A stretch of DNA of 64,000 nucleotides. Source: Gekko japonicus (Eukaryota). The notes under the pieces are model-generated. The model was not told the origin of the DNA, made no database searches, and saw nothing but the letters and a program-made list of their open reading frames with translations. Both the position numbers and the translations under genes were made by a program. Shown in pieces: positions 1,470 to 60,082 of the stretch. The number at the start of each line of letters is the position of its first letter. Position 1 is the stretch's first letter. The DNA is taken from contig NW_015165887.1 in the NCBI RefSeq assembly GCF_001447785.1, forward strand, positions 31,373 to 95,372, in the 5' to 3' direction.

Positions 1470-2455
1470 TCATAGAATCACAGAGTTGGAAGGGACCGTA
1501 CAGACCATCTAGTCCAACTCCCTGCTCAATGCAGGATCAGCCTAAAGCTTCCCTGACAAGTGTTTGTCCATCCACTGCTTAAAGACTGCCAGTGAGTGCA
1601 AGCTCACCACCTCCCTAGGCAGCTGCACAACTCTTACTGTAAAAACGTAATTTAAACCCATTATTGTGAGTCCTATCCTCTGCTGCCATCAGGAACAGCT
1701 CCCTGCCCTCCTTTAAGTGTCAGCCCTTCAGATACTTCAAAAAAGGCAAGCTCACCACCTCCCTAGGCAGCTGCACAACTCTTACTGTAAAAACGTAATT
1801 TAAACCCATTATTGTGAGTCCTATCCTCTGCTGCCATCAGGAACAGCTCCCTGCCCTCCTTTAAGTGTTAGCCCTTCAGATACTTCAAAAAAGCAATCAT
1901 GTCCCCTCTCGACCTCCTCTTCTCCAGACTAAACATTCCTAAGTCCCTCAGCCTTTCCTCATAGGGCTTGGTCTCCAGGCCCCCAATCATCCTTGTCACT
2001 CTCCTCTGCACCAGCTCCATTCTGTCCACATCCTTTTTGAAGTGAGGCCTCCAGAACTGCACAGAATTCTCTAGGTGTGGCCTGACCAATGCAGTATACA
2101 GCGGGACTATCACATATTGTGATTTGGATGTTATGCCTCTGTTGATACACCCCAAGATTGCATCAGCCTTTTTTGTCATTGCATCACATTGGCTGCTCAT
2201 ATTTAACTTATGGTCCACCCATACCTCAGGATCTAGTTCACACACACTGCTACCCGGAAGTGTATCCCCCATCCAGTATGCGTGTTCCTCGTTTTTGTTT
2301 CCCATTTGTAAAACTGGGCATTTATCCTTGTTAAATTGCATCTTGTTCACATTCGCCCACTTTTCCAGCATGTTCAGATCTTGTAGAATTCTGTCTCTAC
2401 CTTCTGGTGTGTTTGCTGCTCCTCTGAATTTGGTGTCACCTACAAACTTAATGAG
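1470..2455 (-). mobile_element. CR1 LINE 3' fragment
   Basis: ORF 1868-2371 (MQFNKDKC...LYTALVRPHLE..VQFWRP...LGMFSLEKRR) and CR1 tail TCATAGAATCACAGAGTTGGAAGGGACC; about 150-bp internal tandem duplication at about 1598-1893. Confidence 0.9.
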
Positions 2456-2662
2456 TAGTGGCCAGTGGGTGAAGACTTGTTTGTTTCATCTAGCATTCCC
2501 TCAATAATACCTCCTCCCTGGCCTATGTTTTAAATTGATGTCTGTTTTTAATTGAGGTATGTTTTTAGTCATCAGGCACCTTGGTGAGCCTGACTGGGCT
2601 GAAAGACAGGTTATAAATATTCTAAAATAAATGCTTGAATGAATAAATGTACTTTCTCATAG

Positions 2663-11753: not shown

Positions 11754-12773
11754 TCATTCCTTGAACAAGTCAATGGTAGATGTTCTTGTATAAAAGACCT
11801 GACGAGTTAAGACTAGTTTTACAGCTTTCCTAAACCATCGGTAGGAAAACACATAAATCAAGGGGTTGCAGGCAGAATTGAAATAAGCAAACCAAATAAG
11901 AACATCAAACACACTAGGAGGGGTAATAAAATTCACCAGGCTGTCCACCATGGTGTCTATTGTAAAAGGCAGCCAGCACAGGAGATAGATTCCTACAGCT
12001 ATTCCAAGTGTTTTAGCAGCCTTCCTTTCCCTCTTTGTTGCTCCTAATTGGGTCTGAGACCCAATTATCTTATTCGTGTTATTTATCTGCCTGGCTTGTC
12101 TGGTTGCCACAATAAATATCTTGACATACAACCCTATCATTATGAGGCATGGGAAGAAGAAGACTGGGAAGTTTATCCATCCCCAGAGTTTATTGAAGAG
12201 CAGCTGGCAGCTACCAATGCAAGGCACGTCCTGTAAGAACTGCTCTAATCCTTCCTCGATTGCTTTGGTATAAAGGAATATGGAAGTATAAACCACAGGC
12301 ACGCCCCAGCCTATTGCTATATAAATGCAAGCAACCCGGGTGGTGAACTTGGTAGGGTAGAGCAATGGATCACAGATGGCACAGTGGCGGTCAATGGATA
12401 TAAAGCAGAGGTGGAATATTGAGGTCAAGCAAAAGAGCGTGTCCAGAAAGGTGTGGAACCGGCAGAAGTCTTCCCCAAAGTACCAGCAGCCTTCCACTGA
12501 ACGGACCATGCTGAAAGGCAGCACTGTTAAGCCTAGGAGGAGATCTGCCAAGGCAAGTGAAAGTAGTAAGAAATTAGTGGGTGTGTGAAGTGTTTTGAAG
12601 TGGGAGACAGAAATCACCACCAGCAGGTTCCCTAGTACTGTGAGGAACATCCCCATGGCACAGACTAGGTAGACAGCCAACTGGATTCCAAAGGAGTGTA
12701 GAGTTCTGTAGCAAGAGCCATTGATCTCAAAGCATGGTGGGCTTAGAGTTGCACCTTCCACAACAGAGTTCAT
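11754..12773 (-). CDS. TAAR5: Trace amine-associated receptor 5 (class A GPCR, single coding exon)
   Basis: Intact 339-aa 7TM ORF. N-terminus [38 protein letters not shown] motif, Asp3.32 in HTFLDTLFC and TAAR signature NSACNPLIYVFSYRWF match TAAR5 as I recall it. Confidence 0.93.
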   Translation of the reverse strand: MNSVVEGATLSPPCFEINGSCYRTLHSFGIQLAVYLVCAMGMFLTVLGNLLVVISVSHFKTLHTPTNFLLLSLALADLLLGLTVLPFSMVRSVEGCWYFGEDFCRFHTFLDTLFCLTSIFHLCFISIDRHCAICDPLLYPTKFTTRVACIYIAIGWGVPVVYTSIFLYTKAIEEGLEQFLQDVPCIGSCQLLFNKLWGWINFPVFFFPCLIMIGLYVKIFIVATRQARQINNTNKIIGSQTQLGATKRERKAAKTLGIAVGIYLLCWLPFTIDTMVDSLVNFITPPSVFDVLIWFAYFNSACNPLIYVFSYRWFRKAVKLVLTRQVFYTRTSTIDLFKE

Positions 12774-12892
12774 CCTTCTTTCCCAATTCAGCCTGCATTA
12801 AATAGCTCAGATCTGGCGATCTTCATCTGAAAAAGAATGTATCGGGTCACTTAGAAGGTAAAGAAGATGTAATATGTAAAATGATTATCACA

Positions 12893-24148: not shown

Positions 24149-25186
24149 TTAAACACCTGCCCCAAAGAGATTCACTGCAGAAGAATTTCTTCTGAAGATC
24201 GTTCCTGTCACAATCATTTTAAATGTTTTGCGAAACCAAGGGTAAAATAAGCCATAAATGATGGGATTACATGTAGAATTGAAATACCCCAGCCAGAGAA
24301 AGGCATTGTACAAACCCTCAGGGGTTGAGAAACCAATGTAAGGGTCTGTTATGGTAAGAACAAAAAAGGGTAACCAGCATAGAACAAATGCTCCCATTAC
24401 TATGCTTAATGTCTTAGTAGCTTTGCTTTCTTTTTTAGTACAAAATTTCCCTTTTCTGTCAGATTTTGATGCGTGTGGAATCCGAGCGATTTGTGTTGCA
24501 TGCTTGTTTGCCACTTTAAATATGTGGAGATAAATGCCCACCATGATTGTTCCAGGAAGAAAGAAGGCTATGAAAGAAGCCATTACTCCCCAGAGCTTAT
24601 TAAATATCAGTGAACAAAAGCCATAGCAATATAGAGAGTCCACATAGTCTTCAATACCATCAATATTTAGTTCTGAGAAAACTAGGCCAAACGCAAACAG
24701 GATTGGGACAGACCAACTAATCAATAAAAAAACTTCAACAACGGGAATAGTTATCTTGGTAATGTAATGAAGGGGAGCACACACGGCATAGTAGCGGTCA
24801 ACAGAGATAAAGCACAAATGGAAAATGGAAGTGGTACACAGCATGATATCACAACAGGTATGAACTTTGCAGAAGAGGTCACCAAAGTACCAGCACGAGT
24901 CAATTGACCTCGCCATACTGAATGGCATCACCGTGAGGCTGAGCAAAAAGTCTGTGGTTGCCATGGAGCAGATGAGAATGTTGGTTGGTGAATGGAGCTG
25001 TTTGAAATGGAGGATAGAGATAATCACAAACATATTTCCACACATAGTAAGCAGTATGGCCCCCACCATAAAGAGATAGATAACAAAAAGGCTGATTGGA
25101 GACCTCAGATTTTTAGGACATGAATTATTCACAAATTCAAAGCAGTATTGCACATCCAATGAGCCCCAGAGTGTGGTTGAGTTCAT
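24149..25186 (-). CDS. TAAR4: Trace amine-associated receptor 4
   Basis: Intact 345-aa 7TM ORF. SCWYFGDLFCKVHTCCDIMLCTTSIFHLCFISVDR closely resembles mammalian TAAR4. Signature NSTCNPIIYGLFYPWF present. Lies between TAAR5 and TAAR2, as in mammals. Confidence 0.88.
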   Translation of the reverse strand: MNSTTLWGSLDVQYCFEFVNNSCPKNLRSPISLFVIYLFMVGAILLTMCGNMFVIISILHFKQLHSPTNILICSMATTDFLLSLTVMPFSMARSIDSCWYFGDLFCKVHTCCDIMLCTTSIFHLCFISVDRYYAVCAPLHYITKITIPVVEVFLLISWSVPILFAFGLVFSELNIDGIEDYVDSLYCYGFCSLIFNKLWGVMASFIAFFLPGTIMVGIYLHIFKVANKHATQIARIPHASKSDRKGKFCTKKESKATKTLSIVMGAFVLCWLPFFVLTITDPYIGFSTPEGLYNAFLWLGYFNSTCNPIIYGLFYPWFRKTFKMIVTGTIFRRNSSAVNLFGAGV

Positions 25187-25576
25187 GATTTAGTGCCTTT
25201 GATCTTCCATTAAAAAGGAAAAACAGCAGCTCCTATAAAAAATAAAATAAGCAGCATATAATAAGTATGTTCTGGGACAGCTTGTACACCCATGAAAGGG
25301 AAAATACAGGTGCAAATTATCTCTGTTACATGGGTTGGGACATTATTGTGGCAGCAAATTTCTAATTACATAGTAAATAAAAAGGTCCTTTCTTCAGGCA
25401 ATTATTTTATTGGGTGACTTTATAGGATCATAAACTACTCTCTGTCTACTTTTTCCATACCAGGAATAATGTGATCAATTTATATTGTCCTTTTTTCCTA
25501 AACTGAAAAGCTTCAGAAGTTTTGACCTTAGCTCACAGGGGAGATACTCTACACTTCTGATTGTTTTGGTTATTCT

Positions 25577-29100: not shown

Positions 29101-32083
29101 AAAATAAAATATGAACTCCAGATACCTGTATGAAGAAAAAATATGGATATGTATATTTTAATACAATCTCTAACAGTGCAATACTAATCAGAGTTTCACC
29201 CTTCTATGTCCATTGACTTTGGACTCTGCTTATTATTATGTTTCAAGTCTAAATTTTTAACAAAATTTATTAACATACAATAAATATTAAACTGATGGGC
29301 ATGATACCCAGGTATCACTATAATGCAGACAAAAAACCACAGGAAAGACACCTTTAGAACATATTTTGTTTCATCAATCATTAAATTTAAGGACATCTTA
29401 TTCTCATCTCTACATTTCTGTGTCAAAAGTAAACTGGTTCCATAACTCTTAAAGCTTTACCTGATCATTTTTGAATTTCAGATCTTCCCAGGAAACAGTA
29501 TTTTCAGTGGATTTTTTCCTCAAGACTTATTTGTTAGTCTCAATAAGAAGGTGAATGTGGCTTGGTTGTGCTTGTTCTTCATATATGGCTCCTTCCAGAC
29601 ATAACAAATACAAATTTTAAAGCCTTCTACATGTGATGATTATTGTGATGCTGATATATTCCTGGTACAGAAAGAGAGAAAAGAAGACAGGAAGGTGCCT
29701 CTAATGAGATTCATAAGTTTCTCATCATCAGACCTGGTTTTTAGCTAATACTCTGCAACTTTTCATTCTGTAACTGTGAATGAGAACATTCATGGCTCCA
29801 AAGATAACTTACAGTGAAATCTTTTTGGATTGTATCCTTCATCCTAGTAAAAATGACATCCATGAGTATCTAACCTTTCACAAAGCAGTCCTCCTAAGCC
29901 CTTCTTTTATACAACCACCTCCCTACTCAGGGATGGACTGGCCATTTAACTTACCAGGAAAGTCCTCTGTGGACTATTGCCCTGGAGGGCAGCTGACAGT
30001 AAGGAGTAAGCACAGTCAAGAGCAAGCCAATCTTAGCACCCCATCTAGTGCTATGAGCCAGCTCTTCAGGGGCTACCACTCAGTTCTGTCTTAGCAACAA
30101 TAACCAGTGTCAGTTTGTGGAAGAAGGTAATGGCTGACAGACTTGATGCCCACTGCTGGTACTGCTAGATGGGTCCACGTTAAATGGCCCTGCAGTGCTC
30201 GTTCACAGCTCCAGATAGGGCATACAATGTGCATGCTCCTGCAGCCATTTTAAATTCCCAGTCTGTCTCTGTCACCACTCCTTACAGCCACCTTCCTGGG
30301 AACCCTTCTCCTTTATACAAACCACCTTCCCTTGCCTGCCTTAGGCATGATTTACATTGGTGCAGCATTCCACATACCCAACAACTTTTAGAATTGGGGC
30401 ATTGGTGCAGCATTCCACATACCCAACATCTTTTAGAATTGGGGGTTGTTCATTCATTTATTCATTCATTCATTCATTCATTCATTCATGTATTAATTAT
30501 TTGATTTACATAATTTGTACCTTGTCTTTCTGCCCCATCGCAGCCAGCAAAGCAGCCTAAGAGTTCAAATAAACATCATTAATTATTTGATTTACATAAT
30601 TTGTACATTGTCTTTCTGCCCCAACACAGCCAGCAAAGCAGCCTAACAGTTCAAATAAACATAAAAGTGTGCCATAAAAACAATTAAAACCAAAATTAAA
30701 CTTTATATTTAAAAGCACAGAAAAACAGTAAATAAATCCTCAAGCAAGAAGGGATCACTGAAGGAATAACATAGTATGACAGACAGGGTAGGTTCTGCCC
30801 TTCCCTAAGACTGACCAATGAGAGCTTTCCCCCACCTTTTAAAAATAATTTTATCGAGAAACAATAAGGGTACAATATCCATCAACTTTCAACAGTGGTA
30901 CATCTATAAAGTAACACAAATCAAATAATTAACATTCAGTATTATGATAATCATTCAATTGTCATTACAAAGCTAAAATTAGCTAAGGCATCAGAACCAA
31001 AAGGACTTTCGTGTTTGAATTTCCATTTCAGAAATGGAGCCCACATTAATTACACATGACTCATTGACCTGTAACTCTGAACTTTGAATGTCATCTGAAT
31101 TTTTTTCCATAATAAAATAATCCCACAATTTTGGAGGGTTTTTGTCTTTCCACTTTATCATTATTATGTTTTTTGCTGCCGTGACCATTGTCATAATCAG
31201 GTCTTTCTCAAGTTTGGAGACTTTAAAGGTTTCCCAAACCTATCTTATGGTATCTATATAAGAACAGAATAGATATCTCATAACCAACGGAGAATGACGC
31301 TTCGTTATTAGTCCCCACAGCTTTCCCCCCCTCCATCTCCCTCCCCCAGTAATATCAAAGTATTGTATCAACCATGGTACAAAGGTAAAGACAGAAAGCA
31401 TGATGTACCAAACTGTCATACATTTGACCCAGGAGATAAAAAAAGACAAACCATGCGGTCCCTGAACCTCACAGGGAAGAGCCGTGGTGGCTCCACAGAC
31501 CTGTGTGCCTAAAAAAGAAAGAGCTAAGCAGGAGAGAAACCACCATCTCTGTCCACCCACTTTACGCTAATTAAAAAAGTGAAATAAAACACCACCAGCA
31601 TAAATAGAAACTACACAATAAAAGTAAACATATATAAACTTTGCAGAGCCAGTTAAGTTGCATGCCATATTGGAAATGTTCTGTCTTTCATGGGTGACAG
31701 CAGCTCCAGTTTTCTGTTTTGCGATTTTTTTGTCTCTTCCATTGGGACTCCGATATCCAGCCCTTGCAAGAGGTCATAGCCTTGATCCAGATCTTCTGCT
31801 GCCAGAACCTTGTTGTGGTGAGTAACTTGAATAGCTCCTGTAGGTAGCCATCGAAATTTAATTTTCGCTTCATTTAACAGTGTTGTTATTGGTCTGAGAG
31901 ACCGCCAGGTCTGCAGCATTTCATCCACCAAGTCGGGAAAAATCTGTACTGCTGTATCATTGAAGTGAAGGCTGCCATTTTTTGATACTTGAAGCAGTCT
32001 CCTTTTAATGCGTAGGTCTGGGACTTCAATAATAATAATAATAATATCTCGAGATCGTCCCCACCTTTGGCTGCCTTCCCTCA

Positions 32084-32113
32084 GCTCTTGCTTCAACAGT
32101 GCTTGAATGGAGC
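32084..32113 (+). promoter_or_regulatory. Iron-responsive element (IRE) stem-loop in the ferritin 5' UTR
   Basis: GCTCTTG-C-TTCAA-CAGTGC-TTGAA-TGGAGC: C bulge, perfect 5-bp upper stem and CAGUGN loop. Confidence 0.92.
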
Positions 32114-32226
32114 AGGGTCATGGCCGCCCCATCCTTCCATTTTTCCACCAGACCAGCAAACCAACAGCCCGATCCTTCCTTTTTTCCGCCAGACCAGCAA
32201 ACCATCAGCCCGCCTCTATCTGTGTC

Positions 32227-32721
32227 ATGAACTCCCAGGTCCACCAGAACTATGACACCAAGAGCGAAGCTGGGGTGAACAGCTTGGTCAACCAGTTCTT
32301 CCGCGCCAGCTACACCTATCTGTCCCTGGGTTACTATTTCACCCGGGACGATGTGGCTCTATCCAAGTTTGCATCCTTTTTCCGGCATTTGTCTGAGGAG
32401 AAACACAAACAAGCTGAGAAACTCCTGACCCTCCAAAACCGTCGTGGAGGGAGAGTCTTTCTCCAGGATGTTAAAAAACCGGAGCAGGATGAATGGGAGA
32501 AGAATGTGAACCAGGCTCTGCTGGATCTGCACAAGATCGCTTCTCACCACGTGGATCCTCACATGTGTGACTTCCTGGAGACTCAATACCTTGACGAGGA
32601 GGTGAAGCTGATCAAGAAGCTGGGTGATCACCTGACCTACCTGAAGCGGGTGCGTGCCAGCGAGGACGGCCTGGGCGAGTACCTCTTCGATCGCCTCACC
32701 TTGGGCGAGTCCAGCGACTGA
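32227..32721 (+). pseudogene. FTL: Ferritin light chain processed retrocopy (open frame, internal in-frame deletion of about 13 codons)
   Basis: Intronless MNSQVHQNY...RDDVAL...[16 protein letters not shown]...[12 protein letters not shown]-chain ferroxidase positions are replaced (E27>F, E62>K, H65>Q, Q141>E), indicating L type. The DEW|EKNVNQ junction lacks about 13 aa. 5' UTR with IRE and AATAAA at 32885-32890 retained. Confidence 0.88.
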
Positions 32722-35060
32722 GCTGCAGAGTGCTGGATCCCTCCAGAGTCCTCCCACCAACCTGTCCAGCTGTGTTGCTCTAATTTGTCATGTGCCTATG
32801 TTTAAAAAAAAGTTTGGCTGTTCAGTGAATGAGGCATGCCTCTACCCTGCACATCTTGGGGAGGAGAGTCTGTAACTGGCATTAAATAAAACTTGCCATT
32901 AAGCACTACACTGGCACGTGTTTGTGTGTGTATATGTGCATGCTAACTAGGATAACCTTTGCACAGCATTTTGGATTCAGTGATATTGCCCAGTTTAGCT
33001 TCCATGGATTGAGGAGTGGGTGACCTCTCCTAAAACAAACTGACCTCCAGTTCAGCTAATACAGGGTAACTGTGCCTTCCCTCTGTTCTCTGCCTTCTGT
33101 AATCAAAGATATGATCATCTGCCACTGTATCATGGCTTCCCCGGACTGTCTAAGGGCTGGCTTGCCTGGGCTTCCCACAGCCACGGGGCGCCCGGGCAAG
33201 CTAAGGGAAGGCATGGGGGTGTGGCCTAATATGCTAATGTGCTGTGCTGTTGGGCTGTGGCCTAATACGTTAATGAGTTTCTGCTGTTGGGTGTGGCCTA
33301 TTATGCTAATGAGTTCCTCTACAAAAAAAGCCCTGCACATATTTATTTTCTAATGTTAGTATCCTGGCTTTTGCCCACTTTTCACGCTTTTGTAGTTGTT
33401 GAACCCCGCCTTGATTGGCTAGCACAGCTTCCATGGCCATATCGGCTGTTTGTACTACTTGCTGAAGCATTTTGTGCATGGTGTCTAACTGTTCGGCCAA
33501 GGGTTTCCAAATTTCATGCAGATTGTCGAGTATTTCCTTCTTGAAGTCTTTCAGTTCCTCATGGAGGTCTTGTTTGGTTAGGTTTTCTTTAGAGGCTTTC
33601 CCTAAGTCGAGTCCGGCCACCATTTGGAATGACCGTTGCGTTGATTGAGGGGCAATTTTCTGAAGATCTTTTTTCGATAAAAAGTCTGTCAGAAGCCTGG
33701 TGCTTCCAGATTGTGATTTAGTTTTATGTTCCTCTGGCTTACCCATGCTTTCTGAAGAGAAGATTTAATCACTTGTTGTGACTTTTAAAAGCAAAGTGGG
33801 CAGATCAGATCCAGAGCTCTCCCCCTACACGTCTGCCATCAGCTGCCCCGACGCTCCACCCCCCACCAATGAGAGCTAATGGAATGTTGGAGAGAGACAG
33901 CAGTTAAGAGGGCATTTTGGAGTTGCCATCTAAGGAACGAGAGGGAAATAACAGTCTGATTGAGTGAAGCTAAGGGGAAAGTAAGCTTAAAGGTAACTGA
34001 TGAGGAAATCAATTTGTAACATGAGATTCAAGATGCTGGAACAGGGGAACAGTTCAAAAGTTCAATGGAAGTGAAACATAACTTCTACCTTCCTTTGGTC
34101 AGTGTTATATTCATACCATAAATAAGAGTTAACTTCTTGTTTTGTTTAACCCTGTGGGCTGTGTGTCTCAGGGAAAGATCTTAGTCTATACATGTTTAAG
34201 ATATGACTAAGTGGTGGCAGTGTGTGCATGGGTCAGTGTTTGAGCCCCCAACCCCAATAACTCTGGGAAGTTTTTGAGTGAGGGTTGTTATAGAAGGGGT
34301 GGGCTTCCCCGTCTGCTGATGCCTCTGTGAGTGAGAGAGAGTACATGAGATGCAAAATGGTCATGGTTCTCTAAAGAGTTTTAAAAAGATGAGAAACGTA
34401 GCAAGGGTGATGGCCTTACCTACTTGTAACCTGGAACCTGAGAGAGAGGGGTTTCTGAGGGTGGTAGGCACTCTGTGTGACTGGAAAGGGACATAACGTA
34501 GAGGAAATTTTTTAAAAAAATCTTCCCTCACTGGCAGAAGACAGTGACAGAAAGGAGCAGACAACGATCCCTGGGGAGATACACATATTGTGCATCCTAT
34601 TGTGGTGATGTGCTGATATTTTATATACAGTGACTCAGTTTAAATGAGTTGTTTCGTTGTGCAAACATCACATAGGTAAGTTCTTCTGTCTGTCCAGCAT
34701 CGTGTTTAAATCAGACCTTGCTACCCTTCAAGAGGAAACTGAATCCCTGAAAAGGAAGCCCTCAGAGTGTAGCAAGAGATTCCCTCCTACATCCAATCAA
34801 AGAACCTGCAGTGTGGTTGATGGGCAGTAATAGGATGACAACCAGAGTTGCCAATTCCAGCTTGAGAGAAGTTTGTGGAGATTTGACGGTGGTACCTGAG
34901 GAAGATAGAGATGGGGCTGGGGGTTGGTGGCATTATTTATACTATACAGCCCACCCTCTGAAGTTGCCATATCTTACAGAGGAACTAATCTCTGAGCCAC
35001 CCCATCCACTGCTCATGCGGAGCGGTGGAGCCTCAGCTACTTTGTGCCTCGGCTGAGGAC

Positions 35061-38622: not shown

Positions 38623-39657
38623 TTATTGATTTTCAGAAAACAGATTAGCAGTACAGAAATGTCGATGGAATATTTTTCCTATGAGGATATATCTAAGTGC
38701 TTTTTGAAACCATGGGTAGAAAAAGCCATATATTAATGGGTTACAGGTAGAGTTAAAGTAGCCAAACCATGTTAAAACATCAAATAATACTGCAGGGGTT
38801 GAAAAACCTATAAAAGGGTCAATTAAAATGACAAAGAAACATGGAAACCAACATAAAAGGAAAAACCCCATCACTATACTCAAAGTTTTGGCAGCTTTCC
38901 TATCTTTACTTGTGGAAAACTGGTTTTGTTTACCATTATGGGAACTTTTAGGCTCATTTTTCATGGCTTTCAAATGCTTTTTGGATACCTCGAAAATTTT
39001 TGCATAAATTCCAATCATTGCACAGCCAGGAATAAAGAAGCCAAATGAGAACAGAACTGTTCCCCACAGTTTATTAAACATAACTGGACAGGAACTAGAA
39101 CATGCAACTAAAGTTGCATAGCCTTCTATGCCAGAAGCATAGACTTCTGAGAAAACCACTCCAAAAGCAAAAATGGCTGGTGCCAGCCAGCAAAGGACTA
39201 TCAATTGCCTAATCACAGGGACAGTGATTTTGCATGAGTAATGCAGAGGATGACAGATGGCATAGAAACGATCAACAGCAATGGAGCATAAGTGGAAGAT
39301 AGAAACCAAACACAGCATCAGGTCAAAGCTGTAGTGGACTTTGCAGAAGGTGATCCCGAAGTACCAGCAGTTTTCCGCAGATCGGATCATGCTGTAGGGC
39401 ATTATGAAGAAACCCAGGAGGAAATCAGTTACTGCCATGGAGAGGGTAAGGAAGTTAGTTGGGGAGTGCAGCTGTTTGAAATAGGAAATGGAAATTATGA
39501 TGGCTAAATTCCCAAACACTGTGAAGATGATGATTCCGCTCATGGATATGTACATGACTCTTCGAACACCAGCTGATGTGAGGCTTTCAGGACAGGATCC
39601 ATTTCCAAATTGAGAGCAATCAATGACATCCTCAGAGGAGTTAAGGAAAGCCATCAT
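38623..39657 (-). CDS. TAAR2: Trace amine-associated receptor 2 (TAAR2/3 clade)
   Basis: 7TM ORF with ISYFKQLHSPTNF, ENCWYFGITFCKVHYSFDLML, DRFYAIC and NSTCNPLIYGFFYPWF. Start moved from 39681 to the ATG at 39657 because MILFLKFR overlaps a branch point/pyrimidine tract/AG acceptor (exon begins 39658). An upstream coding exon is not excluded. Confidence 0.82.
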   Translation of the reverse strand: MMAFLNSSEDVIDCSQFGNGSCPESLTSAGVRRVMYISMSGIIIFTVFGNLAIIISISYFKQLHSPTNFLTLSMAVTDFLLGFFIMPYSMIRSAENCWYFGITFCKVHYSFDLMLCLVSIFHLCSIAVDRFYAICHPLHYSCKITVPVIRQLIVLCWLAPAIFAFGVVFSEVYASGIEGYATLVACSSSCPVMFNKLWGTVLFSFGFFIPGCAMIGIYAKIFEVSKKHLKAMKNEPKSSHNGKQNQFSTSKDRKAAKTLSIVMGFFLLCWFPCFFVILIDPFIGFSTPAVLFDVLTWFGYFNSTCNPLIYGFFYPWFQKALRYILIGKIFHRHFCTANLFSENQ

Positions 39658-42600
39658 CCTGAATTTGAGAAAAAGAATCATTAGCTTTAGATGCAGCTTG
39701 TGTGTGTGTGTACTTTTTACATCTCTCCATCAACGGCAAGGCTGGAATTCTCATAAAATACATTTTATGTTTAGTCTGAAAACTATTCTCTGAAGAATGC
39801 TATGTGTCTGTAGAAACGTACTCTCTATTATTCTCATTTATTGATCATAAATATAAACATGGGGACAATTACTTACATGCAGCATTATTTAAAACAAAAG
39901 CCCCAAGTTCACGATCACACATCCCTATGGGGAGAAATGTGAAGGTTAGTTTTGGATCAGTGAGAGACCAACTAAGATGAAAACAAAGATTCAAAGGAAT
40001 GCTGATGCACGAATACCCATGCAGCCTGACCCTATGCTTATGTATTCAGAAGTTTGAAAAAGGGGAAAAGAACTTTATGGGTTTATGAAATAAACCATGA
40101 TGTGTTGTAAGAGCAAAAGAAACAAGAAGGTGGAGAACAGAGCACAAACTGAAAGCTAAAGAAAATGAAATGAAATGCAGTGTAATTTGTTAGAAGATAC
40201 AGCTGTATTATAGGTTGAGTCTCTGCAGCTACCCCTGTCCTGTCTGATGCTCCTTTAGAATAAGAGCAAGCCATTCCCATCCTTCTCCATCATTTTCTGC
40301 TTTCCAATAAGCTAGTCTGTTGTAGTGATCAGAATGTCAGGTTTCAACCAAGGACACATGGTTCCAGATTCCTACTTTCTATGGAGCTCTCCAGGTGACC
40401 TTGGGCCAGGCACTCTCTCTCCCAGGCTAAGATAGCTCACAGACTAAGTGACTGGGGTGGGTGGGTATATGAACCATCCCAACCTCCTCGGAAGAGTCTA
40501 TTAAATAAACTTACAAACCATATCCTTCCTGTTTGCATTATTGATCCAGCTCCAGAGGTCATAATGGGGCATGTTGTCTATCACTGCCCATTATCTGGAC
40601 TTCTGCTTTACTAGAGTGGCAACTGATGAGATTGGATCTGAAACATTTTGGGAAATAATTGACTCAGTCCTTCTAATTAAGCCATTTTAAAGCAACCCCT
40701 GCAATTCATTTTGTTAATCTGGCAAGTATGTTTTGAGGATCAGTCTATTAGGGCTTCAGTACAATGTACACTTACCTCAAAGGAGACAGTAAGCAGAGGC
40801 TGGTCCATAGAAAAATCCAGTAATAAAAGTCATGTTCTACCAGTAGTCAAAAGCTCTAATTTCTTTAATCACATACAGTAGCTTTTCAATGATATTGCAT
40901 AAATAGAATCTACTCACAACTCAGTATAGCCACACAGGAATCAAGTTCTGTTCTTTAGGTTCGTCTGCTTTCTTTAATGTCACCTATATCAAATGAAACT
41001 CTAGTTTATTCCGATTATGACATTAGTTTAATCTTGCTTTTCTAATTGTCAGATTTTAGAAATGAATAAACAGATTTCCAACCAAATGAAAGTTCGGAGG
41101 GGTGTGTATAACCAACATAGCTCCCCAACAGTCCACTGCATATTTCTAGATCTGCAGATCACATGTTCTATGAGTAAATGCTTCTCAGTGTTGCCAACCT
41201 CTAGGTGGTGGCTGGATATCTCCAGGAATTACAACTGACCTTCAGAGGACAGGGACTAGTTTATCTGGAGAAAATGGCTGCTTTGGAGCATGAACTGTAT
41301 GGCATTATAGCCCACTGCCATCGAACTCCTCCCCAACCCCAAATCTCTTGGAATTTTCCAACCCAGAGCTGGCAACCCTACTGCTCCCTCTCCCACCATT
41401 TAATAATAATATACTTTATTGTCATTGTACATAGTACAATGAAATTAAAGATGCAATCATTTTGGTGATCTACAACAATATTCATATACACTCACACACC
41501 ATTCACAACTGTCCCATAATTTGTAATAAGCAATGCTCACAGATTCCTCCCATTCCCCTCCCCACCTTGGCTTCAGCCATACTGAGCATCGTTTCACATG
41601 ACTACATAAGTCTGTGGCAGCCCCTTTCATTCTCATGTTGACTTCAGATTTCCTCAATCTTATTATGTGAAAGTACCCTCATTAATTCATCGAGGAGTCT
41701 CCTTCTGAGATGGGCATTTTTATGGTGGTATTTGAAAAACCAGGTCTGAGATAACTTTAGTCTTAGAATGTTCTGGTACATGTGCATAACTGGCTCAGCA
41801 GCACTGCCTCAGGTGAGCGGCTAGAAGCTCACATAGGCTAGGCTTTTTCCCAGGCTAGCATGGACTGAGATGATTGTGTGAAAGAAATAATACAATGCCC
41901 CACTTTCCTGTCAAATCTCAACTATATCATCCTGTTTCTGTACAATTCAGTATATCAAGAAAAGAAAAAAACAACTGAGTACAATCCATTTCCTGAGCAA
42001 GACCTACTGAGATGGGGGCATGAATAGAGAAGTAATATTATGAAGCAAAATGATCCTGTAGATTATATCCTTCAAAAATTTGCAGCAAAATATTGTTAAT
42101 TAGAATCCACTGAAATCTACCCCAAGAATTTTGCCAAGAAAGCAAAACCACATTTTCTACAATTTTGCTCTTCTTTCTTCTCCTACCTGCTGCTGCTGTT
42201 ACATAAAGTCATTTAAACTGTCATGTTGAATTAGATGCCAGACCCAATCATTCCTCCTGGTGCCCTTTTCTAAACTAAACTACGATATAAGGATGCTGTG
42301 TTTTTATGACAATGCAGCCAGGTCTCAAGAGAATTTCAAGCACAAGAAAAGGTTCAGATTAGATCTGGTTTGTTTGTTTTGTTTTTGCAACTACAATCAA
42401 GGAAAGAGGCTGACAGGATTTTGCCCTTAGTCCTTTTCACTGGTTACAGCTTTGGTACTCAAGCCGTGCTTAAGGGCCACTTGTTACTTGCCATCTTCCT
42501 GATAAGTACAGCCACCATTTCCACTTTCCACTTGTTACTTGCCATCTTCCTGATAAGTACAGCCACCATTTTGTGTGAATACAGCTATATGTGTAACTTT

Positions 42601-44429: not shown

Positions 44430-46218
44430 ATGGACCAACTGACCTGCCACCTTGCCTACAATGAGGTAACCGTTCCTCAGTTCCTGTGGCATGAACACTG
44501 CTCAACTCGCAAAGAGTCTCCTGGCACCTAGGATGATCCTTGAATGTACCTACAAGGAAATCATCAACACCCGGACCAGATATCTCATGCCCTGTCCAAC
44601 AACACTCGCTAGACAGATCGAGTTCGAGGGCTACATTCAAAAGCCACTGCATATATGGCCGCCCTGCGTCAGCTTGCTATGGACTGTGCCTTCACCAAGG
44701 TGGAGGAAAACCTCCTGACAGAGTTCGCCTGGGGCATCAGTGATGTAAAGCTGCGCAGGAAAATGATTGGCACCACCAACATCAAGATCGATGAGGCCCT
44801 TCAATTTGCCATCACCCACGAGGCCTCCCACCATGACCAACCCTCGGCAGCTTCTCATCTGGTGCTTCCTGACTCGGCGCCTGAGAATGAGGAGGACGTC
44901 CGTCTCGTCCGCCAACCCACTTGCCGGAAGTCACCGGGACCTGCAGCTACAGGATATCCCGCAAAGGCCGCCAGCCGTTCTTCATGCACCAGCTGCAGTG
45001 AGCCTCATGAGCACAACTCATGCCAGTTCCGGGACGTGACTTGCCACACTTGCGGGAAACAGGGTCACCTCGCCCACATCTGCCAGTCCAAGCGAAACCG
45101 GCACCAGCAACCTGTATCCCAGCCCCGACACCAGGCCACTGCCACCTACAAGACCGCAGCGGAAACCTCTGAACTCTACCTCCTCACTGACTGGCCATCC
45201 CTCCAGGTATTATGACCCCGAATCTGTCTGCTACCCCAAAGATCCCAGTAATGGTCCTGTTCGAGGGGTCCCCCTGCCCTATGGAAGTGGACTCGGGGTT
45301 GGTGGCATCCATCATTTCGGTGGACACACTGCACAGACTTTGCCCTAACGGGGGACCCTGCTTACACCCCTCCCCTTTATGTTTGGTGGACTTCCAAAGG
45401 AACCCAGTTCCTATCTGGGGTGTGGGAACTTTCAGGGTGCAGTACCGGGGTTTTGAGGGACTGCTGGACTTGATTGTGGTGGAGGGAAATCTTGTCAGTC
45501 TGCTGGGGTGGGCCTGGTTTACGCTGTTGGGCATCACGATCAGGGGGGTTAATAAATGTGTAACAAGGGACTTTGCAGAGGTTTGCGGGGAGTTCCCTGC
45601 CATTTTTGATGGGGCTTTAGGGTTTCCTTTCAGCTTGACCCCAAGGTGGCCCCCATCCACATGCAATTCTGCACCACTCCGCTTGCATTCTGGCCCAAAA
45701 TTGATGCTGAGCTGGACCGCTTAGTGGCGCAAGGGGTCCTAGAGCCAGTCTCACACGCCATTTGGGAAACACCAATTGTAACCCCAGTTAAACCCAATGG
45801 CAACATCCGCATCTGTGTGGGCTACAACTGTACACTAAATAAGGCCCTGCACAACCACTCCTACCCAGTCCCAGTCGTAAATCATGTCCTGGCTTCTCTG
45901 GTGGGGTCTAAGATTTTCGGCAAATTAGATCTGGTGCAGGCCTATCAACAGTTGCCGGTTGACAAGGCCACGGCCACGGCACAAACGATAGTCACGCACA
46001 GGGAGGCTTTTAAGGTAAAAAGGCTACAGTTCGGCATAAGCGTAGCCCTGCGGATCTTCCAACAATTAATGGACTTCTTGTTAAAAGGGATCCCTGGAGT
46101 GATGCCATTTTTTGACGATGTCCTCATCACCACGGCGACCCCGGATGACTTCACCTCCCACCTCCGTGCCGTCCTGCAATGTTTCGACTTGGCGGGCCTC
46201 AAAATGAAAAGGGTGAAA
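44430..46218 (+). mobile_element. Ty3/Gypsy internal fragment (gag zinc knuckle, protease, reverse transcriptase), decayed and truncated
   Basis: CHTCGKQGHLAHIC CCHC knuckle, MEVDSG aspartic protease motif, RT motifs WETPIVTPVKPNGNIRIC, KLDLVQAYQQL and FFDDVLI. Frameshifted; no LTRs seen. Confidence 0.88.
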
Positions 46219-48261
46219 TGTCCGAGTCCTCCATGCGGTGAACCCAGTACTTTTCACCATGCATGCTTGCGCGATCAGACAGGGGAAAGTCTGTCCGTGG
46301 CCCGTCACAACCCATTTACTACCGGATTTTCTCTGGTGTCTTTTTACTCCACTTCTGCGGTGGAGCAGCACAGGTTGTTGATGACTGCTGGATGCTTCCC
46401 AGATGTTGCTGTCTGATTGCACCCTGTCAGGCATTTGCGCCTATGTCGGATCTACTGGCGCGTGTGATCGCAGCCCTAATCTAGCATAATGCTAGCATAA
46501 ACAAAAAACAAAACAAAAAAGACTATTTTGGTACATTACATTTGCTCAATTAATACTGACCTCAAAGTATAGAGTGGATATACAGTGAAAACAGTATTGG
46601 CATTGGCTGCCAAGTGGATTTGTTCGTTAGACAGCTGACATCTCCATTGACCTGCCTGTAAAGAACCACAGGAAATTCATTTATGGATCACCTAACACAT
46701 TGAATTTTCTCAAAAGGTAGCCACTGAGAGTCCCAGCTTCAATCAGAGATCTGAACCCTTCCCCTGGCACCATTTGTTCAGGAGAAACCAGTGGCCTTGA
46801 ACTACATAAAACCCCAGAAGGAAAAACAAAACAAACTAGACTGCTTATTTTAGGATTAAGGTTTAGTGTGGTATATCTGCATTCCCCTTGACCTGACTTT
46901 GACTCAGACAATCAGCTGCAAGGAAACTTGCTTCCAAGGCACTGACAGTGCTCTGATTAACTCAGGACCATAGTGCTGGGGGGGAGAAGGGAATTCAGTT
47001 TCACCATGTGATTTTCCCAACCCAAAATAATCTTGAGGGAGTGCTGTTTGTGCTGTTGCAGGGGCTGCATGTTAAGCTCATCTATACAGGTGCAGCAGCC
47101 CAATCGGGTAAGTAATATCCCTCCAGAAAAACCTGAGTGAGGAAAATGGCATGGGGAGGAAGGCTGGAGCCCCTTCTCACACTACATTCCCAGCTCATAG
47201 CTGCACAAGTGCTCTCACAGTTGATATGTGTGTGACTGAGTTAGTCTGGTTAGGCCAAGGGAACTCAAGCACAACATGTTAAAAATTGTAATGTGCAGTT
47301 TGGCAGTCAGTGCCATGATCCTGATACAAATCATCTCCCTCCCTGTGAAGACGTCAAGACTCCTGATCGTAGACTGTATTCCTGCACCCAGCCAAGGCCT
47401 ATGCAGTTTTAATAGAGATTCTGCCTGAGATCCTGGAGAGCCACTGCTAGTCTGAGTAAACAGCACTGACCTTGAGAGACCAGTTGTCTGACTCAGTGTA
47501 AAGCAGCTTCATGCTTTGGTATGTTCTCTGGATGTGAAAATCTGAATAATCTTCAAAAAATTCACAATAGCCTTCTAAAATGTGAACAGGTAGTGGTACC
47601 TATGGATAAATAAGTGCTAAGTATGGATGAATAGCGATAAATTAAATTAAACTATGGATTAAATATAACTAACAGGTGGTAGCAGTGGCCAGGAGTCCCT
47701 TTCACCAGCTTTGATATACTGGCCTGCAGGCTCTGAGTATCAGGTACCAGGGGTCAGGCAAGGCAGGATCATTCAATCCAAGGTCAGGGATCCAGAAGCC
47801 AGGCAAGGCAGAGTTGTTCAGTCCAAGGTCAGAGAATCAGACAAGGCAGAGTTGGTGTCATACGTGTTTTATCCATGCCTAACAGCCTCTCATGCTTGCA
47901 GCCAGATGATCAGAAGCAATCCTGCAACTACACATCTTTGTTATCAGCAAGCGGCTGGCATTAGGCCAGGAGGTGTGCACTTTGCCATCTTGTCTGCAGC
48001 TCTGTTCTCAGCCTTCATATGCAATGCTCTAAGGGTTTAGGTGATACTGGTGGGCTGGGAATGGCTGAGGTTCACCAGCTGAACCAGGGCTGGAGGGTGT
48101 TGGTGGCTCTTCACCAGATGTTGGTTGTGAATCCTGACAAGCCTGCAACTCATTTTCCTGCTGGTCAGCTTTTGTTGACTCAAGGTTGGCTCCTCTTCTC
48201 CTGAGAAATCCTCTTCTCCTAAGGAGTCCTCACTATTGCTGAGCCCTGGTTGAATCATGAC

Positions 48262-57411: not shown

Positions 57412-58440
57412 TTAACATCTGCGTTCTGGATGAATCCTAAAAACTTTCCCAAATAAAATCATCTTCAGAGCCCTTCGAAACCACAGATAAAAAAATGCGT
57501 AAACAATTGGGTTAAATGTTGAATTCAAGTAGCCAAACCAAACCATCGCATCAATGAGAACAGGGGGTGTTGTGTAATTCATAAAGGGATCAGTAGCTGT
57601 GCAGAAAAAGAATGGGAACCAGCAGATGAGGAAAACACCCATCACTGTACCTAAAGTCTTTGCTGCTTTTCTTTCTCCACTGGGTGAAATATGATGCCTC
57701 ATTTCAAATCTTATTTGCATTTGACTCACAGCATTCCTAATAGATCTCGCCTGTCTTTGGGCTATAACATATATCTTCCCATAGACACATAACATGACAA
57801 ATCCAGGGATGTAAAAGGAAACCATGGAGGCCACTACCCCTGATGTTTCATTGAAGAATACAAAGCAGCCTCCCACACAATAGATGAGTTTGTAGAATTT
57901 CTCTTCTGCTCCTATCATGTTTAGCTCCAGAAAGATCATCCCAAAGCCAAACATCGCAGGGACGGTCCAACTTATGGAGATCATGATTAATATAACACAA
58001 GTGTTTATTTTTGATTTGTATCTCAGCGGATCACAGACAGCGTAGTAGCGGTCAATAGAGATAAATGATAGATGGAAGATGGAAGCTGTACTCAGCATGA
58101 TGTCCATGCCGGTGTGGAGTTTGCAGAAGAAGTCTCCAAAATACCAACAATTCTCAACTGATCTCACCATACTGTAAGGCATGACAAAGCATCCCAGGAG
58201 AAAGTCCACAGAGGCCATGGAGAGGATGAGAAAATTAGTAGGGGTGTGAAGCTGCTTGAAGTGTGATATTGAGATGATAACACTTAGATTGCCAGCTATG
58301 GTAGCAAGGATCACACACACCATGAAGACGTACATGGAGACCCGTACATGAATTGACCAGCTGCTCTTTATGCAGGAACCATTTATGGATTCACAGCAAA
58401 ACTGCATACTTCCAAAAGAATCGGATTCATGCAAGCACAT
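57412..58440 (-). CDS. TAAR1: Trace amine-associated receptor 1, with frameshifted C-terminal tail as assembled
   Basis: [51 protein letters not shown] and [16 protein letters not shown]. First in-frame ATG is 58440 and the ATG homologous to mammals is 58407; the ORF-track start at 58542 is a TTG inside a splice acceptor. Confidence 0.9.
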
Positions 58441-60082
58441 TAGCCTCAGTCTGATGGGTAATGCTTGTGCAATTCTTCTTTTACGGTCAAAACAGAAACT
58501 ACTTTGTCTGTTGCCATGCAATGAAGGCAAAGTATCTGCCAAGAGAGAAGTAGAACATTAATTTTATTTATTTATATGAAATGTTTAGCCTGCATCATAA
58601 TCAGCATTCTAGAATCAGCATGCAAATAATACAAAAACAATACAATTGTAAAAAAAAAGAGAGAGATTTAAATATCTGGTAGCATAAAATAAACAGCAAA
58701 ATATTAATTAAAATAACAATATAACTATCTGAACCGGAGGACAGGCTTTTCTGTCCAGGTGTATTACAATGAGGCTGGGCTATTTTACTGGGTAGGCATG
58801 CATGGGATTTTGCTGTTGTTGTTGGTTGTGTTTTGATCAGTATTTTTAATTGTTTTATCATGTGCTCAGGATTTGTGAATGGAGAGAAAGTGCCACCATT
58901 CAGCTTGTGATATGACATCGGAAAGGAACAGGCCAGGTCATTTCTGAAATAAAGTTAGAAACTGGATAAAAGACGATCTACATTCTTTTATCTAAGAATA
59001 TCTGGAGTTGAATGGCCACCACACTTCAAGCACCACATTTCAAGCACCTCAGGGATGGAGGACTTCACGTTTAAAGAAATGCTGTAGCAGCTGATTGGCT
59101 GTACCTTTGAATGCCTCAGCAGGAGGCAGAGGTGGGATGCATCTGAAGAGGCTGGAAAGCCCCCTGAGTTCTTGTGAAATGATGCAGTCTGGCAAGAGGT
59201 TAGGGGGCAGGAAGATGGCATGCACATTATACCATGCCTTCTTCAAAAATGTCAGGGCAAGAGTTGAAGAAGAGGCTCCATGGTACCTTTTTCGGCATGT
59301 GGGGTGTGTGTGGAGAGAAAGCGGCTGGGGAACAATGTATCCACTAAACCCTCCATAACAGAAGCCATCAGGCTGTTGAGACTGGTCCAAGTTGAGGATC
59401 AAGTCTGGTGGAAGGGGTGGGATAGGTATTACCAATGATGACTTCAGGATGAGATTTACAACTGCTTCCTTTAAGGCAGCTGAAACTATCCTTCCCATCA
59501 AGGAATCATCAACGACGCCTGCACCCAGCTGGGCAGGCCCCTTCAACAAGAAGTAAAGAGTCAAAATGGTCACGGGTTAAACACAGAGGTGCAGGTCATA
59601 TCTGACCAAACTCAGTGATTGTAAAACAGAGGCAGGCAAACAAACAACTGTAGTGTTGCCAATTTAACACTTCTAGTGGAGATATTCCTGCCAGCAATCC
59701 CCTCCCCCTCTCATGTGATGTCCCAGAGACTCTCAACCCCCAAAGACCCCCATTTTTGTCACAGCTTGTTACCCTTTTTTGGACATGTCTACCCCTCAGT
59801 GTGAGCCTAGAATCGATAGAAGGAGCCTGAATTAAAGTGGTATTAAAAGGTTTTGCCAACGTTATGTCAAAGGAGGAATGGAATGCAGATTGGATGGAAA
59901 GATTGGATTTTTATGTTCCATTGGCAACACCCCTTCCCCTCTCCATCCCAGGCAAAAAGGTATAAAAAGTTCCCCGCCCAGCTCCCATTTTGTTTTGGAC
60001 TTATCCTGTTACCCCAGCCTAATGGTTGGCTCCTCATCTCTCCAATCTCAACTGTTCACTCCACAGACGTTGTGCTGCATTT

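Follow-up and report, generated by a model that had tools for sequence, protein, structure and literature searches.

The window, that is, the whole 64,000-nt stretch of Gekko japonicus DNA analyzed, contained a minus-strand L1 derivative whose ORF1 was interrupted by a ferritin-L cDNA and by half of a MITE (Table 1). As the earlier note had described, the L1 was bounded by a TSD; its two 13-bp copies were identical (13/13), and a chance match of this kind had a probability of roughly 1e-5 with 30 × 30 positions allowed. The ferritin-L cDNA (32052–33129) was fully spliced and lay antisense to its host L1, and its intron-containing parent gene was found at another locus (G000:C11186:371292-378271).

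Table 1. Coordinates and strands of the features that make up the L1/ferritin-L/MITE locus in the window
Feature	Positions	Strand	Remarks
L1 TSD copy at the L1 3' end (ACCAATGAGAGCT)	30814–30826	.	Repeat family D19, 13/13
10 nt between the short L1 A-tail and the TSD	30827–30836	-	Relatives' 3' ends have an A-rich tail without these nt
L1 3' end: last ~80 ORF2 codons, 3' UTR, and short A-rich tail	30837–31236	-	
Spacer between the ORFs, directly adjoining the ORF2 tail	31237–31652	-	66% to C10596
L1 ORF1 C-terminal part, from RDII (32051) to the stop (31653), open	31653–32053	-	Best relative 63% aa
Ferritin-L 5' UTR, starting at the predicted cap site of the parent	32052–32226	+	
Ferritin-L CDS, intronless, 164 codons, open	32227–32721	+	PF00210
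Ferritin-L 3' UTR, AATAAA near 32885	32722–32908	+	Four other retrocopies end at 32908
491-nt tract without difference from the parent locus	32639–33129	+	
Read-through part: 221 nt of parent-gene flank beyond the poly(A) site	32909–33129	+	Matches the parent genomic flank
Right half (206 nt) of a ~410-nt hAT-type MITE	33130–33335	.	Lacks the left half and the left copy of the TSD
CACATATTT, the parent's next 9 nt, beyond the MITE	33336–33344	+	First 8 nt: presumed MITE TSD copy; last 3 nt shared with the L1
L1 ORF1 N-terminal part, MGKPEEHK to ILTLENK, ATG at 33746, open	33342–33746	-	Best relative 69% aa
L1 5' UTR	33747–33864	-	69% to L058
L1 TSD copy at the L1 5' end	33865–33877	.	

The two ORF1 halves were not recognized by Pfam, which gave only weak matches under the curated cut-offs, so the L1 identity rests on relatives within the genome. 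One of them, C10596, had the same 3' end downstream of ORF2-like frames, in which we take certain motifs to be those of an endonuclease and a reverse transcriptase; four 3'-end copies matched the L1 3' end at 85–89%. Both ORF1 halves were free of stops, with a short (ATT)n/poly-Ile expansion in the C-terminal one. The split of ORF1 proposed earlier held in that both halves were found, but the L1 homology of the N-terminal half ended at 33342 and not at 33336, and RDII of the C-terminal half lay at 32051. In intact ORF1 relatives, ~60 extra codons separated the halves, with a gap of 155–199 nt at 41 of 42 loci (a measure 9 nt too low where the alignment begins past the poly-Ile expansion; one locus of the 42, with 943 nt, was excluded from the median). 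Compared with these relatives, the window L1 had lost ~180 nt of ORF1 and carried the ferritin-L cDNA in its place, which bears out the claim that a middle segment is absent and replaced.

Most of ORF2 was also missing from the window L1, with ~80 tail codons left. The ORF2-deletion junction was crossed by none of 31 other matches, all of which ended at 31236–31238, and it was found at this locus only in the assembly search. The term "non-autonomous L1" is thus appropriate for this one deleted copy but not for a family, and membership in the HAL1 family was rejected on the same ground; splicing as the origin of the ORF2 skip was rejected because seven relatives had no AG acceptor at the skip. 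Like HAL1 (half-L1) elements as characterized in the available portions of PMC5753468 and PMC5322556, the window element is a TSD-bounded L1 derivative with ORF1 present and usable ORF2 absent; unlike them, it is a single copy with a unique deletion junction, a broken ORF1, and no family.

In the ferritin-L copy, all three parental introns (2777, 1974, and 1151 nt, GT..AG) were precisely gone. The 5' UTR, CDS, and 3' UTR that had been read from the sequence were confirmed by an IRE at 32084–32113 (Rfam RF00037, 34.6 bits against a gathering threshold of 34), by PF00210, and by alignment with the parent. The best PDB match was an L chain (214 bits), by a narrow margin over the best entry named heavy chain (209 bits), and at the aligned positions of H-chain E27, E62, and H65, which we assume, numbering included, to be the ferroxidase ligands, the copy had F, K, and Q. 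A 41-nt tandem duplication in the 5' UTR (32126–32207) and an in-frame 39-nt deletion (13 codons) in the CDS near 32494 were absent from the earlier description; splicing as the source of the deletion was rejected, since there was no GT..AG on either strand. The first base shared with the parent, at which the copy started, lay 33 nt downstream of a TATA box, and two other retrocopies had the same start base; all three had G before it where the parent had C, which fits copying of the cap (a cap-G is mentioned in a figure legend of PMC11702581). In the 5' part of the copy, 12 of 25 parental CpGs were changed. Another paralog as the source of this diverged part was rejected, as the seven other copies were intronless or truncated and none explained the changes as a set. 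The lack of a poly(A) tail and of a TSD belonging to the ferritin piece itself was likewise confirmed: parental flank ran on past 32908, and no repeat of at least 6 nt was found within 45 nt of the joints.

The approximately 300 bp beyond AATAAA previously regarded as unexplained proved to be the genomic flank of the parent gene at 32909–33129. Comparison of 32910–33335 with parental downstream DNA, which had been proposed, accordingly gave parental flank up to 33129, whereas the remainder (33130–33335) was the MITE half, the transposon end noticed earlier. Beyond the MITE, the parent's next nine nucleotides, CACATATTT, resumed; they were also found in the separate contig C167495 and overlapped the L1 by TTT. 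The motif TATTTTC was common to the parent and the L1 with an offset of 4 nt, and microhomology of 2–3 nt was present at both ferritin/L1 joints. Sibling copies of the MITE were 341–414 nt long, with matching ends and terminal inverted repeats, and in the four siblings with both ends found, the TSDs matched at 8/8, 8/8, 7/8, and 5/8 positions. Their CAG-starting terminal inverted repeats and 8-bp TSDs are presumably those of the hAT class; the siblings' matching ends and TSDs make the window element similar to hAT-type MITEs, whereas the presence of the right half alone distinguishes it from full ones. The presumed 8-bp TSD at this site was CACATATT. The MITE copies were young, the nearest differing at 4 of 187 positions.

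From its 5' end, the ferritin copy showed 27 differences relative to the parent over 547 nt, followed by none over 491 nt (Fisher p 2.4e-8). Judged from the sequence, this identity would mean either an assembly collapse or a recent gene conversion. There is about an even chance that the tract is an assembly artefact in which parent reads collapsed at this place, the true allele being ~3–4% diverged and possibly holding the whole MITE with both TSD copies. Such a collapse is consistent with the abrupt loss of differences, with the private changes present in every other layer, with unplaced contigs of 225 and 230 nt that duplicate parts of the element at 100%, and with the end of the tract at the exact point where the left MITE TSD copy should start. 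Moreover, a contig of DNA run X1 (32866–33129), presumably the parent allele, differed from both G000 copies by 3 letters and 2 gaps, so that the retrocopy is nearer to the G000 parent than the parent alleles are to each other. However, the three private letters in the MITE half make that half look locus-specific, and the 5' part of the copy was not collapsed although it has identical runs of at least ~40 nt. With somewhat less than an even chance, the tract may instead be a real and very recent ectopic gene conversion, in which resection of a break at the MITE left end, with repair from the parental sequence, erased the copy's changes and took away half of the MITE together with its left TSD copy. 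One event would then cover both the identical tract and its stop at the MITE truncation, and the youth of the MITE copies agrees with it. The tract begins inside exon 4, ~78 nt past the exon border, and within the exon it has the letters of the expressed parent (X2 piece 32668–32765, 0 differences), which points to the direction from parent to copy; yet the event would have to be younger than the polymorphism at the parent locus, no microhomology was found at 33129/33130, and only reads can distinguish conversion from collapse. If real, the tract would represent a dated parent-to-retrocopy gene conversion beside a MITE.

The locus as a whole is quite likely a single-copy, spliced, tailless ferritin-L retrocopy in one internally deleted L1, which it entered afterwards in an event of its own, through priming within a read-through transcript and with target deletion. 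The earlier suggestion that a read-through transcript was inserted with target-site deletion is supported, the extra DNA being parent flank and ~180 nt of ORF1 being gone. Target deletion without a TSD is a less usual outcome of retrotransposition. First, an L1 lacking most of ORF2 would have integrated with the 13-bp TSD. A break in ORF1 would then have left the L1-sense strand with an exposed A-rich 3' end, and this end may have paired with a U-rich stretch of a capped and spliced ferritin RNA that was uncleaved at the poly(A) site; L1 reverse transcriptase, likely acting in trans, would have copied this RNA up to the cap, and the cDNA end would have rejoined ORF1 ~180 nt further on. The hAT-type MITE would have inserted later, 8 nt from the 3' joint, and the 491-nt tract and the loss of the MITE left half would have come last, by assembly collapse or recent repair from the parent locus. 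Private changes gave no age order of the layers (9 window-private changes in 392 nt of the L1 3' end, 3 in 189 nt of the MITE half, and ~15 non-CpG changes, some of them on the parent's side, in ~500 nt of the 5' part of the ferritin copy). Rather than a mobile cassette, the copy is probably an ordinary pseudogene, and likely a dead one. It should be noted that the ferritin ORF remains open and that no allele or ortholog having the L1 but lacking the ferritin came to light, both of which speak against this reading.

Ferritin genes have L1-made processed pseudogenes, according to the available portion of PMC7760355, and the window copy resembles processed pseudogenes in its removed introns, its start at the predicted cap site, its parent located elsewhere, and its CpG decay; unlike them, it has neither poly(A) nor TSD, continues for 221 nt beyond the poly(A) site, and stands in place of ~180 nt of its target. 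Tailless retropseudogenes are known in the green anole as well as in therians (Noll et al. 2015, PMC5322556, available portion); the window copy shares with them the absence of an A-tail and the complementarity of RNA end and target (here 3 nt exact, 7 nt offset by 4), whereas those described there have TSDs and are 3'-truncated; the window copy instead goes with a deletion in the target and reaches past the 3' end of the mature mRNA. If formed by the later insertion described above, the locus matters little: it would offer a neat reptilian case of a tailless retrocopy with target deletion and a record of a rare ferritin RNA, spliced yet uncleaved at the poly(A) site.

It is unlikely that a single complex integration brought in the antisense ferritin along with the L1 and its ORF2 skip, all within one TSD; the L1-sense (second) strand would then have jumped from ORF1 to a ferritin RNA that was capped, spliced, and uncleaved, copied this RNA as far as its cap, and rejoined the L1 template ~180 nt further on. 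The strand geometry fits, with the antisense ferritin on the L1-sense strand and microhomology at both joints, but a later break in a resident L1 gives the same geometry. Although the element was already abnormal (its ORF2 skip is unique and not of the GT-AG type, and its 3' joint has 10 extra nt), its private divergence was alike in the L1 and ferritin parts, and both ORF1 halves lacked stops, nesting is common, and the MITE is another nested insertion at this locus. Two-RNA insertions in opposite orientation (PMC11702581) and double template jumps (PMC2104539) are reported in the available portions of these papers; however, the opposite-orientation partners in those of PMC11702581 and bioRxiv 10.1101/2025.02.02.635956 are two-part insertions or an mRNA at the L1 5' end, with no L1-mRNA-L1 sandwich. 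As in the mRNA/L1 chimeric insertions of these three sources, mRNA-derived and L1 sequences lie within one TSD here, and antisense cases exist among them; unlike those, in which the mRNA stands at the L1 5' end or forms one of two parts, the ferritin lies in the middle of ORF1 and co-arrival is only a possibility. A literature search (main texts, with few subscription papers among them) found no report on this locus or on an L1-mRNA-L1 sandwich. If true, the single integration would make the L1/antisense-mRNA/L1 sandwich a fossil, kept in the germline, of a double template jump from DNA to RNA and back to DNA, with a switch of the L1 reverse transcriptase to an RNA template during germline second-strand synthesis, a step that to our knowledge is poorly resolved.

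A mobile ferritin cassette, that is, a ferritin-bearing L1 derivative made elsewhere and retrotransposed here as a unit in trans, is highly improbable and was rejected, because junction searches and a scan of 85 L1 loci, in which no ferritin sequence was found, revealed no sibling: in the assembly search, the L1/ferritin 5' and flank/MITE junctions each occurred at this locus only, and the only match of the MITE/L1 junction elsewhere was a 230-nt contig whose sequence is identical to the window. The earlier note had offered movement as a unit as an alternative and had itself named unique junctions as evidence against it; it is unsupported. The unit is bounded by a TSD, and in two DNA runs of one study (X1 and X2, read to ~50% and ~33%) no contig lay over the unique L1 body at 31302–32003 or 33408–33758, as might be the case if an insert that had already decayed arrived recently and is polymorphic; a further run, X17, had two placed records and does not bear on this. 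However, no donor or sibling was found among the best-scoring candidates in the assembly, whose fragmentation (191,500 contigs) together with the scoring of the best candidates only means that a donor may have been missed; the nearest ORF1 relative had 69% aa identity, ORF1 was broken and ORF2 absent, and no GT-AG-type loss marked a passage of the chimera through RNA.

In RNA run X21 (~3% read), reads had the parent's letter at the diagnostic sites listed (666/666 reads at 32120, for instance, and 763/765 at 32225), and no copy-specific reads were detected at these sites, which is weak evidence of silence, as the animal may lack the insertion. Read depth in this run was 0 at 32940–33056 against several hundred in the 3' UTR, and this lack of read-through indicates that the template RNA must be rare. 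Seven more ferritin-L copies were found in the genome, three of them tailless and 3'-truncated (C6839 with a 13-bp TSD, C4955 with an 8-bp candidate, and C10571 with none found); thus, internal priming on ferritin mRNA recurs in this genome. Together with the window copy, these three fit the proposal of relaxed L1 priming in lizards put forward in the available portion of PMC5322556.

The ferritin-L sequence was found to be a retrocopy in which all four exons of the parent gene (G000:C11186:371292-378271; introns of 2777, 1974 and 1151 nt) are joined, lying between two open halves of L1 ORF1 in a unit bounded by an exact 13-bp repeat (30814-30826 and 33865-33877), which confirms the observation in the earlier note that such a copy is housed inside an L1. 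The copy starts at 32052, the corresponding parent base being located 33 nt below the TATA box. The start position was shared with the ferritin copies of contigs C10571 and C6839, and in all three it was preceded by G, whereas the parent has C there, as would be expected from copying of the cap. The IRE was present; the 5′ UTR carried a 41-nt duplication and exon 3 an in-frame 39-nt deletion. Among solved relatives of the encoded protein, L chains ranked narrowly first, and its ferroxidase positions were L-type when compared with the H-chain residues. The parent flank continued for 221 nt beyond 32908; thus, the DNA beyond AATAAA is present as described earlier but is no longer unexplained, being the downstream flank of the parent gene. 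In the part of RNA run X21 that was read (~3%), depth was 0 at 32940-33056, which shows that read-through RNA is rare and speaks mildly against a ready supply of a read-through template. The L1 body was likewise without coverage, the parent's letter was carried by all or nearly all reads at the diagnostic sites listed, and no sign of expression of the window copy was found.

On the minus strand, the order was 5′ UTR, N-terminal half of ORF1 (134 codons), insert, C-terminal half and spacer, the spacer running straight into the terminal ~400 nt of an L1, whose 3′ end matched four truncated copies at 85-89%. The best relatives of the ORF1 halves were 69% and 63% identical (protein searches, best 150 candidates each, excluding the locus itself and an identical 230-nt contig). 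The halves were 155-199 nt apart in 41 of 42 relatives with both, and the ORF1 loss at the locus was ~180 nt, corrected for a poly-Ile expansion. A HAL1-like family was rejected in favor of a single deleted copy, since none of the 31 other matches crossed the ORF2-skip junction and all stopped at 31236-31238; no splice acceptor was found at the skip in seven relatives. Three ORF1 matches lay inside open frames of 1403-1449 codons (G000:C16276:349650, C507:371526 and C11187:822999) and could represent L1 copies whose ORF1 and ORF2 share a single frame. In a short L1 derivative (G000:C4995:270248-271308, L058), only ~600 nt separated the 5′ UTR match from the ORF2 tail, and the deletion junction was a different one.

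At the 3′ joint, parent and L1 overlapped by TTT, and TATTTTC was common to both at a 4-nt offset; at the 5′ joint, they shared 2 nt (3 if the cap G is counted), the L1 side being deduced from contig C10596. No inner TSD was found around the ferritin insert, as the earlier note had reported. Such joints would be expected if an A-rich 3′ end of DNA had primed internally on a U-rich stretch of RNA. Insertion of ferritin into a resident L1 is the simpler reading and probably the correct one. Arrival of L1 and ferritin together, in one event involving a jump of the second strand, would produce the same geometry but is considered unlikely. PMC11702581, bioRxiv 10.1101/2025.02.02.635956 and PMC2104539 describe related chimeras, both two-RNA and tripartite, from which the present case differs in having the mRNA in mid-L1; our literature search found no chimera of this arrangement. 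Private divergence was ~2% (L1 3′ end, 9/392; MITE half, 3/189 against nine copies) and that of the ferritin 5′ part ~3% outside CpGs, parent-side changes included; from these values it does not follow whether L1 or ferritin arrived first. A mobile ferritin cassette, with the chimera moving as a unit, is very improbable: no second copy of the junctions was found among the best candidates scored in a fragmented assembly (2.49 Gb, 191,500 contigs), an outcome taken beforehand to speak against co-mobilisation although not proof of absence. The 5′ junction query gave 11 matches, including the L1 side only at the locus itself; the flank/MITE query gave two (the locus and the parent), the ORF1 N-half query four (the locus, two distant L1s and the 230-nt contig identical to the locus) and the 3′ ferritin query six, none new, while no ferritin sequence was found in 85 fetched L1 loci. 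Thus, the anatomy described earlier is confirmed and its interpretation partly supported, joint mobilisation being the part without support.

Segment 33130-33335, noted earlier as a transposon end, proved to be a MITE's right half. Siblings of this MITE measure 341-414 nt and have matching ends; the half in the window lacks 12 nt that same-type siblings carry near the end. The 8-bp flanks of the four siblings with both ends found matched at 8/8, 8/8, 7/8 and 5/8. Since the parent's next nine bases, CACATATTT, directly follow the MITE half and the G000 parent has no MITE at the matching site, insertion of the MITE into the retrocopy, at a point 8 nt from the 3′ joint, is the most likely course. 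The assembly lacks both the left half of the MITE and the left copy of its TSD. The MITE/CACATATTT/L1 joint also occurs in a separate contig, C167495; therefore, the evidence for read-through is not confined to the suspect tract 32639-33129. Relative to the spliced parent, 27 substitutions were counted in 547 nt up to 32638 and 0 in the next 491 nt (Fisher p = 2.4e-8), with 12/25 versus 0/10 CpGs changed. A 1039-nt contig of DNA run X1, a putative parent allele because its continuation beyond 33129 is unlike the window, differed from both G000 copies by 3 letters and 2 gaps over 264 nt; hence, either the assembly was collapsed over this tract or the tract was converted more recently than the parent-locus polymorphism arose. 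In the parts of runs X1 and X2 (one study) that were read, no contig covered the unique L1 body.

Among the seven other ferritin-L retrocopies, four ended at the equivalent of 32908, three of these with a visible A-tail, and three were tailless like the window copy, in line with the tailless retropseudogenes reported for a lizard (PMC5322556). The C6839 and C10571 endpoints are ≤8 nt apart (mRNA 310 and 318), possibly reflecting a preferred priming site. The copy at G000:C8994:165232-165866 (L021) has its 3′ UTR piece inverted relative to the CDS pieces and resembles a twin-priming product; that at G000:C4968:181189-181826 (L015) is 5′-truncated, and its exon 4 is interrupted by an insert of ~270 nt at a distance from every parental intron position.

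Locations of tailless ferritin-L retrocopies in the assembly (G000) and of receptor frames in the window
Feature	Location	Strand	Remark
Tailless, 3′-truncated ferritin-L retrocopy	G000:C6839:97472-97772 (L020)		13-bp TSD
Tailless, 3′-truncated ferritin-L retrocopy	G000:C10571:1211870-1212185 (L016)		TSD looked for, none found
Tailless, 3′-truncated ferritin-L retrocopy	G000:C4955:1519813-1520282 (L017)		
GPCR-like receptor frame	11754-12797	minus	frame reading
GPCR-like receptor frame	24149-25189	minus	frame reading
GPCR-like receptor frame	38623-39729	minus	frame reading
GPCR-like receptor frame	57412-58557	minus	frame reading

In the window (G000:C6177:31373-95372), the element lies between the receptor frames 24149-25189 and 38623-39729, two of four intact, single-frame GPCR-like long frames that we take to be a cluster of trace-amine receptor (TAAR) genes. 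The frames at 44613-46416 resemble gag, protease and reverse transcriptase, presumably from a gypsy-type element that is broken, and 1868-2485 (minus) is presumably a CR1-like reverse transcriptase tail. Just left of the L1 TSD, an 86-nt local tandem duplication adjoins a (TTCA)n run (30500-30662).
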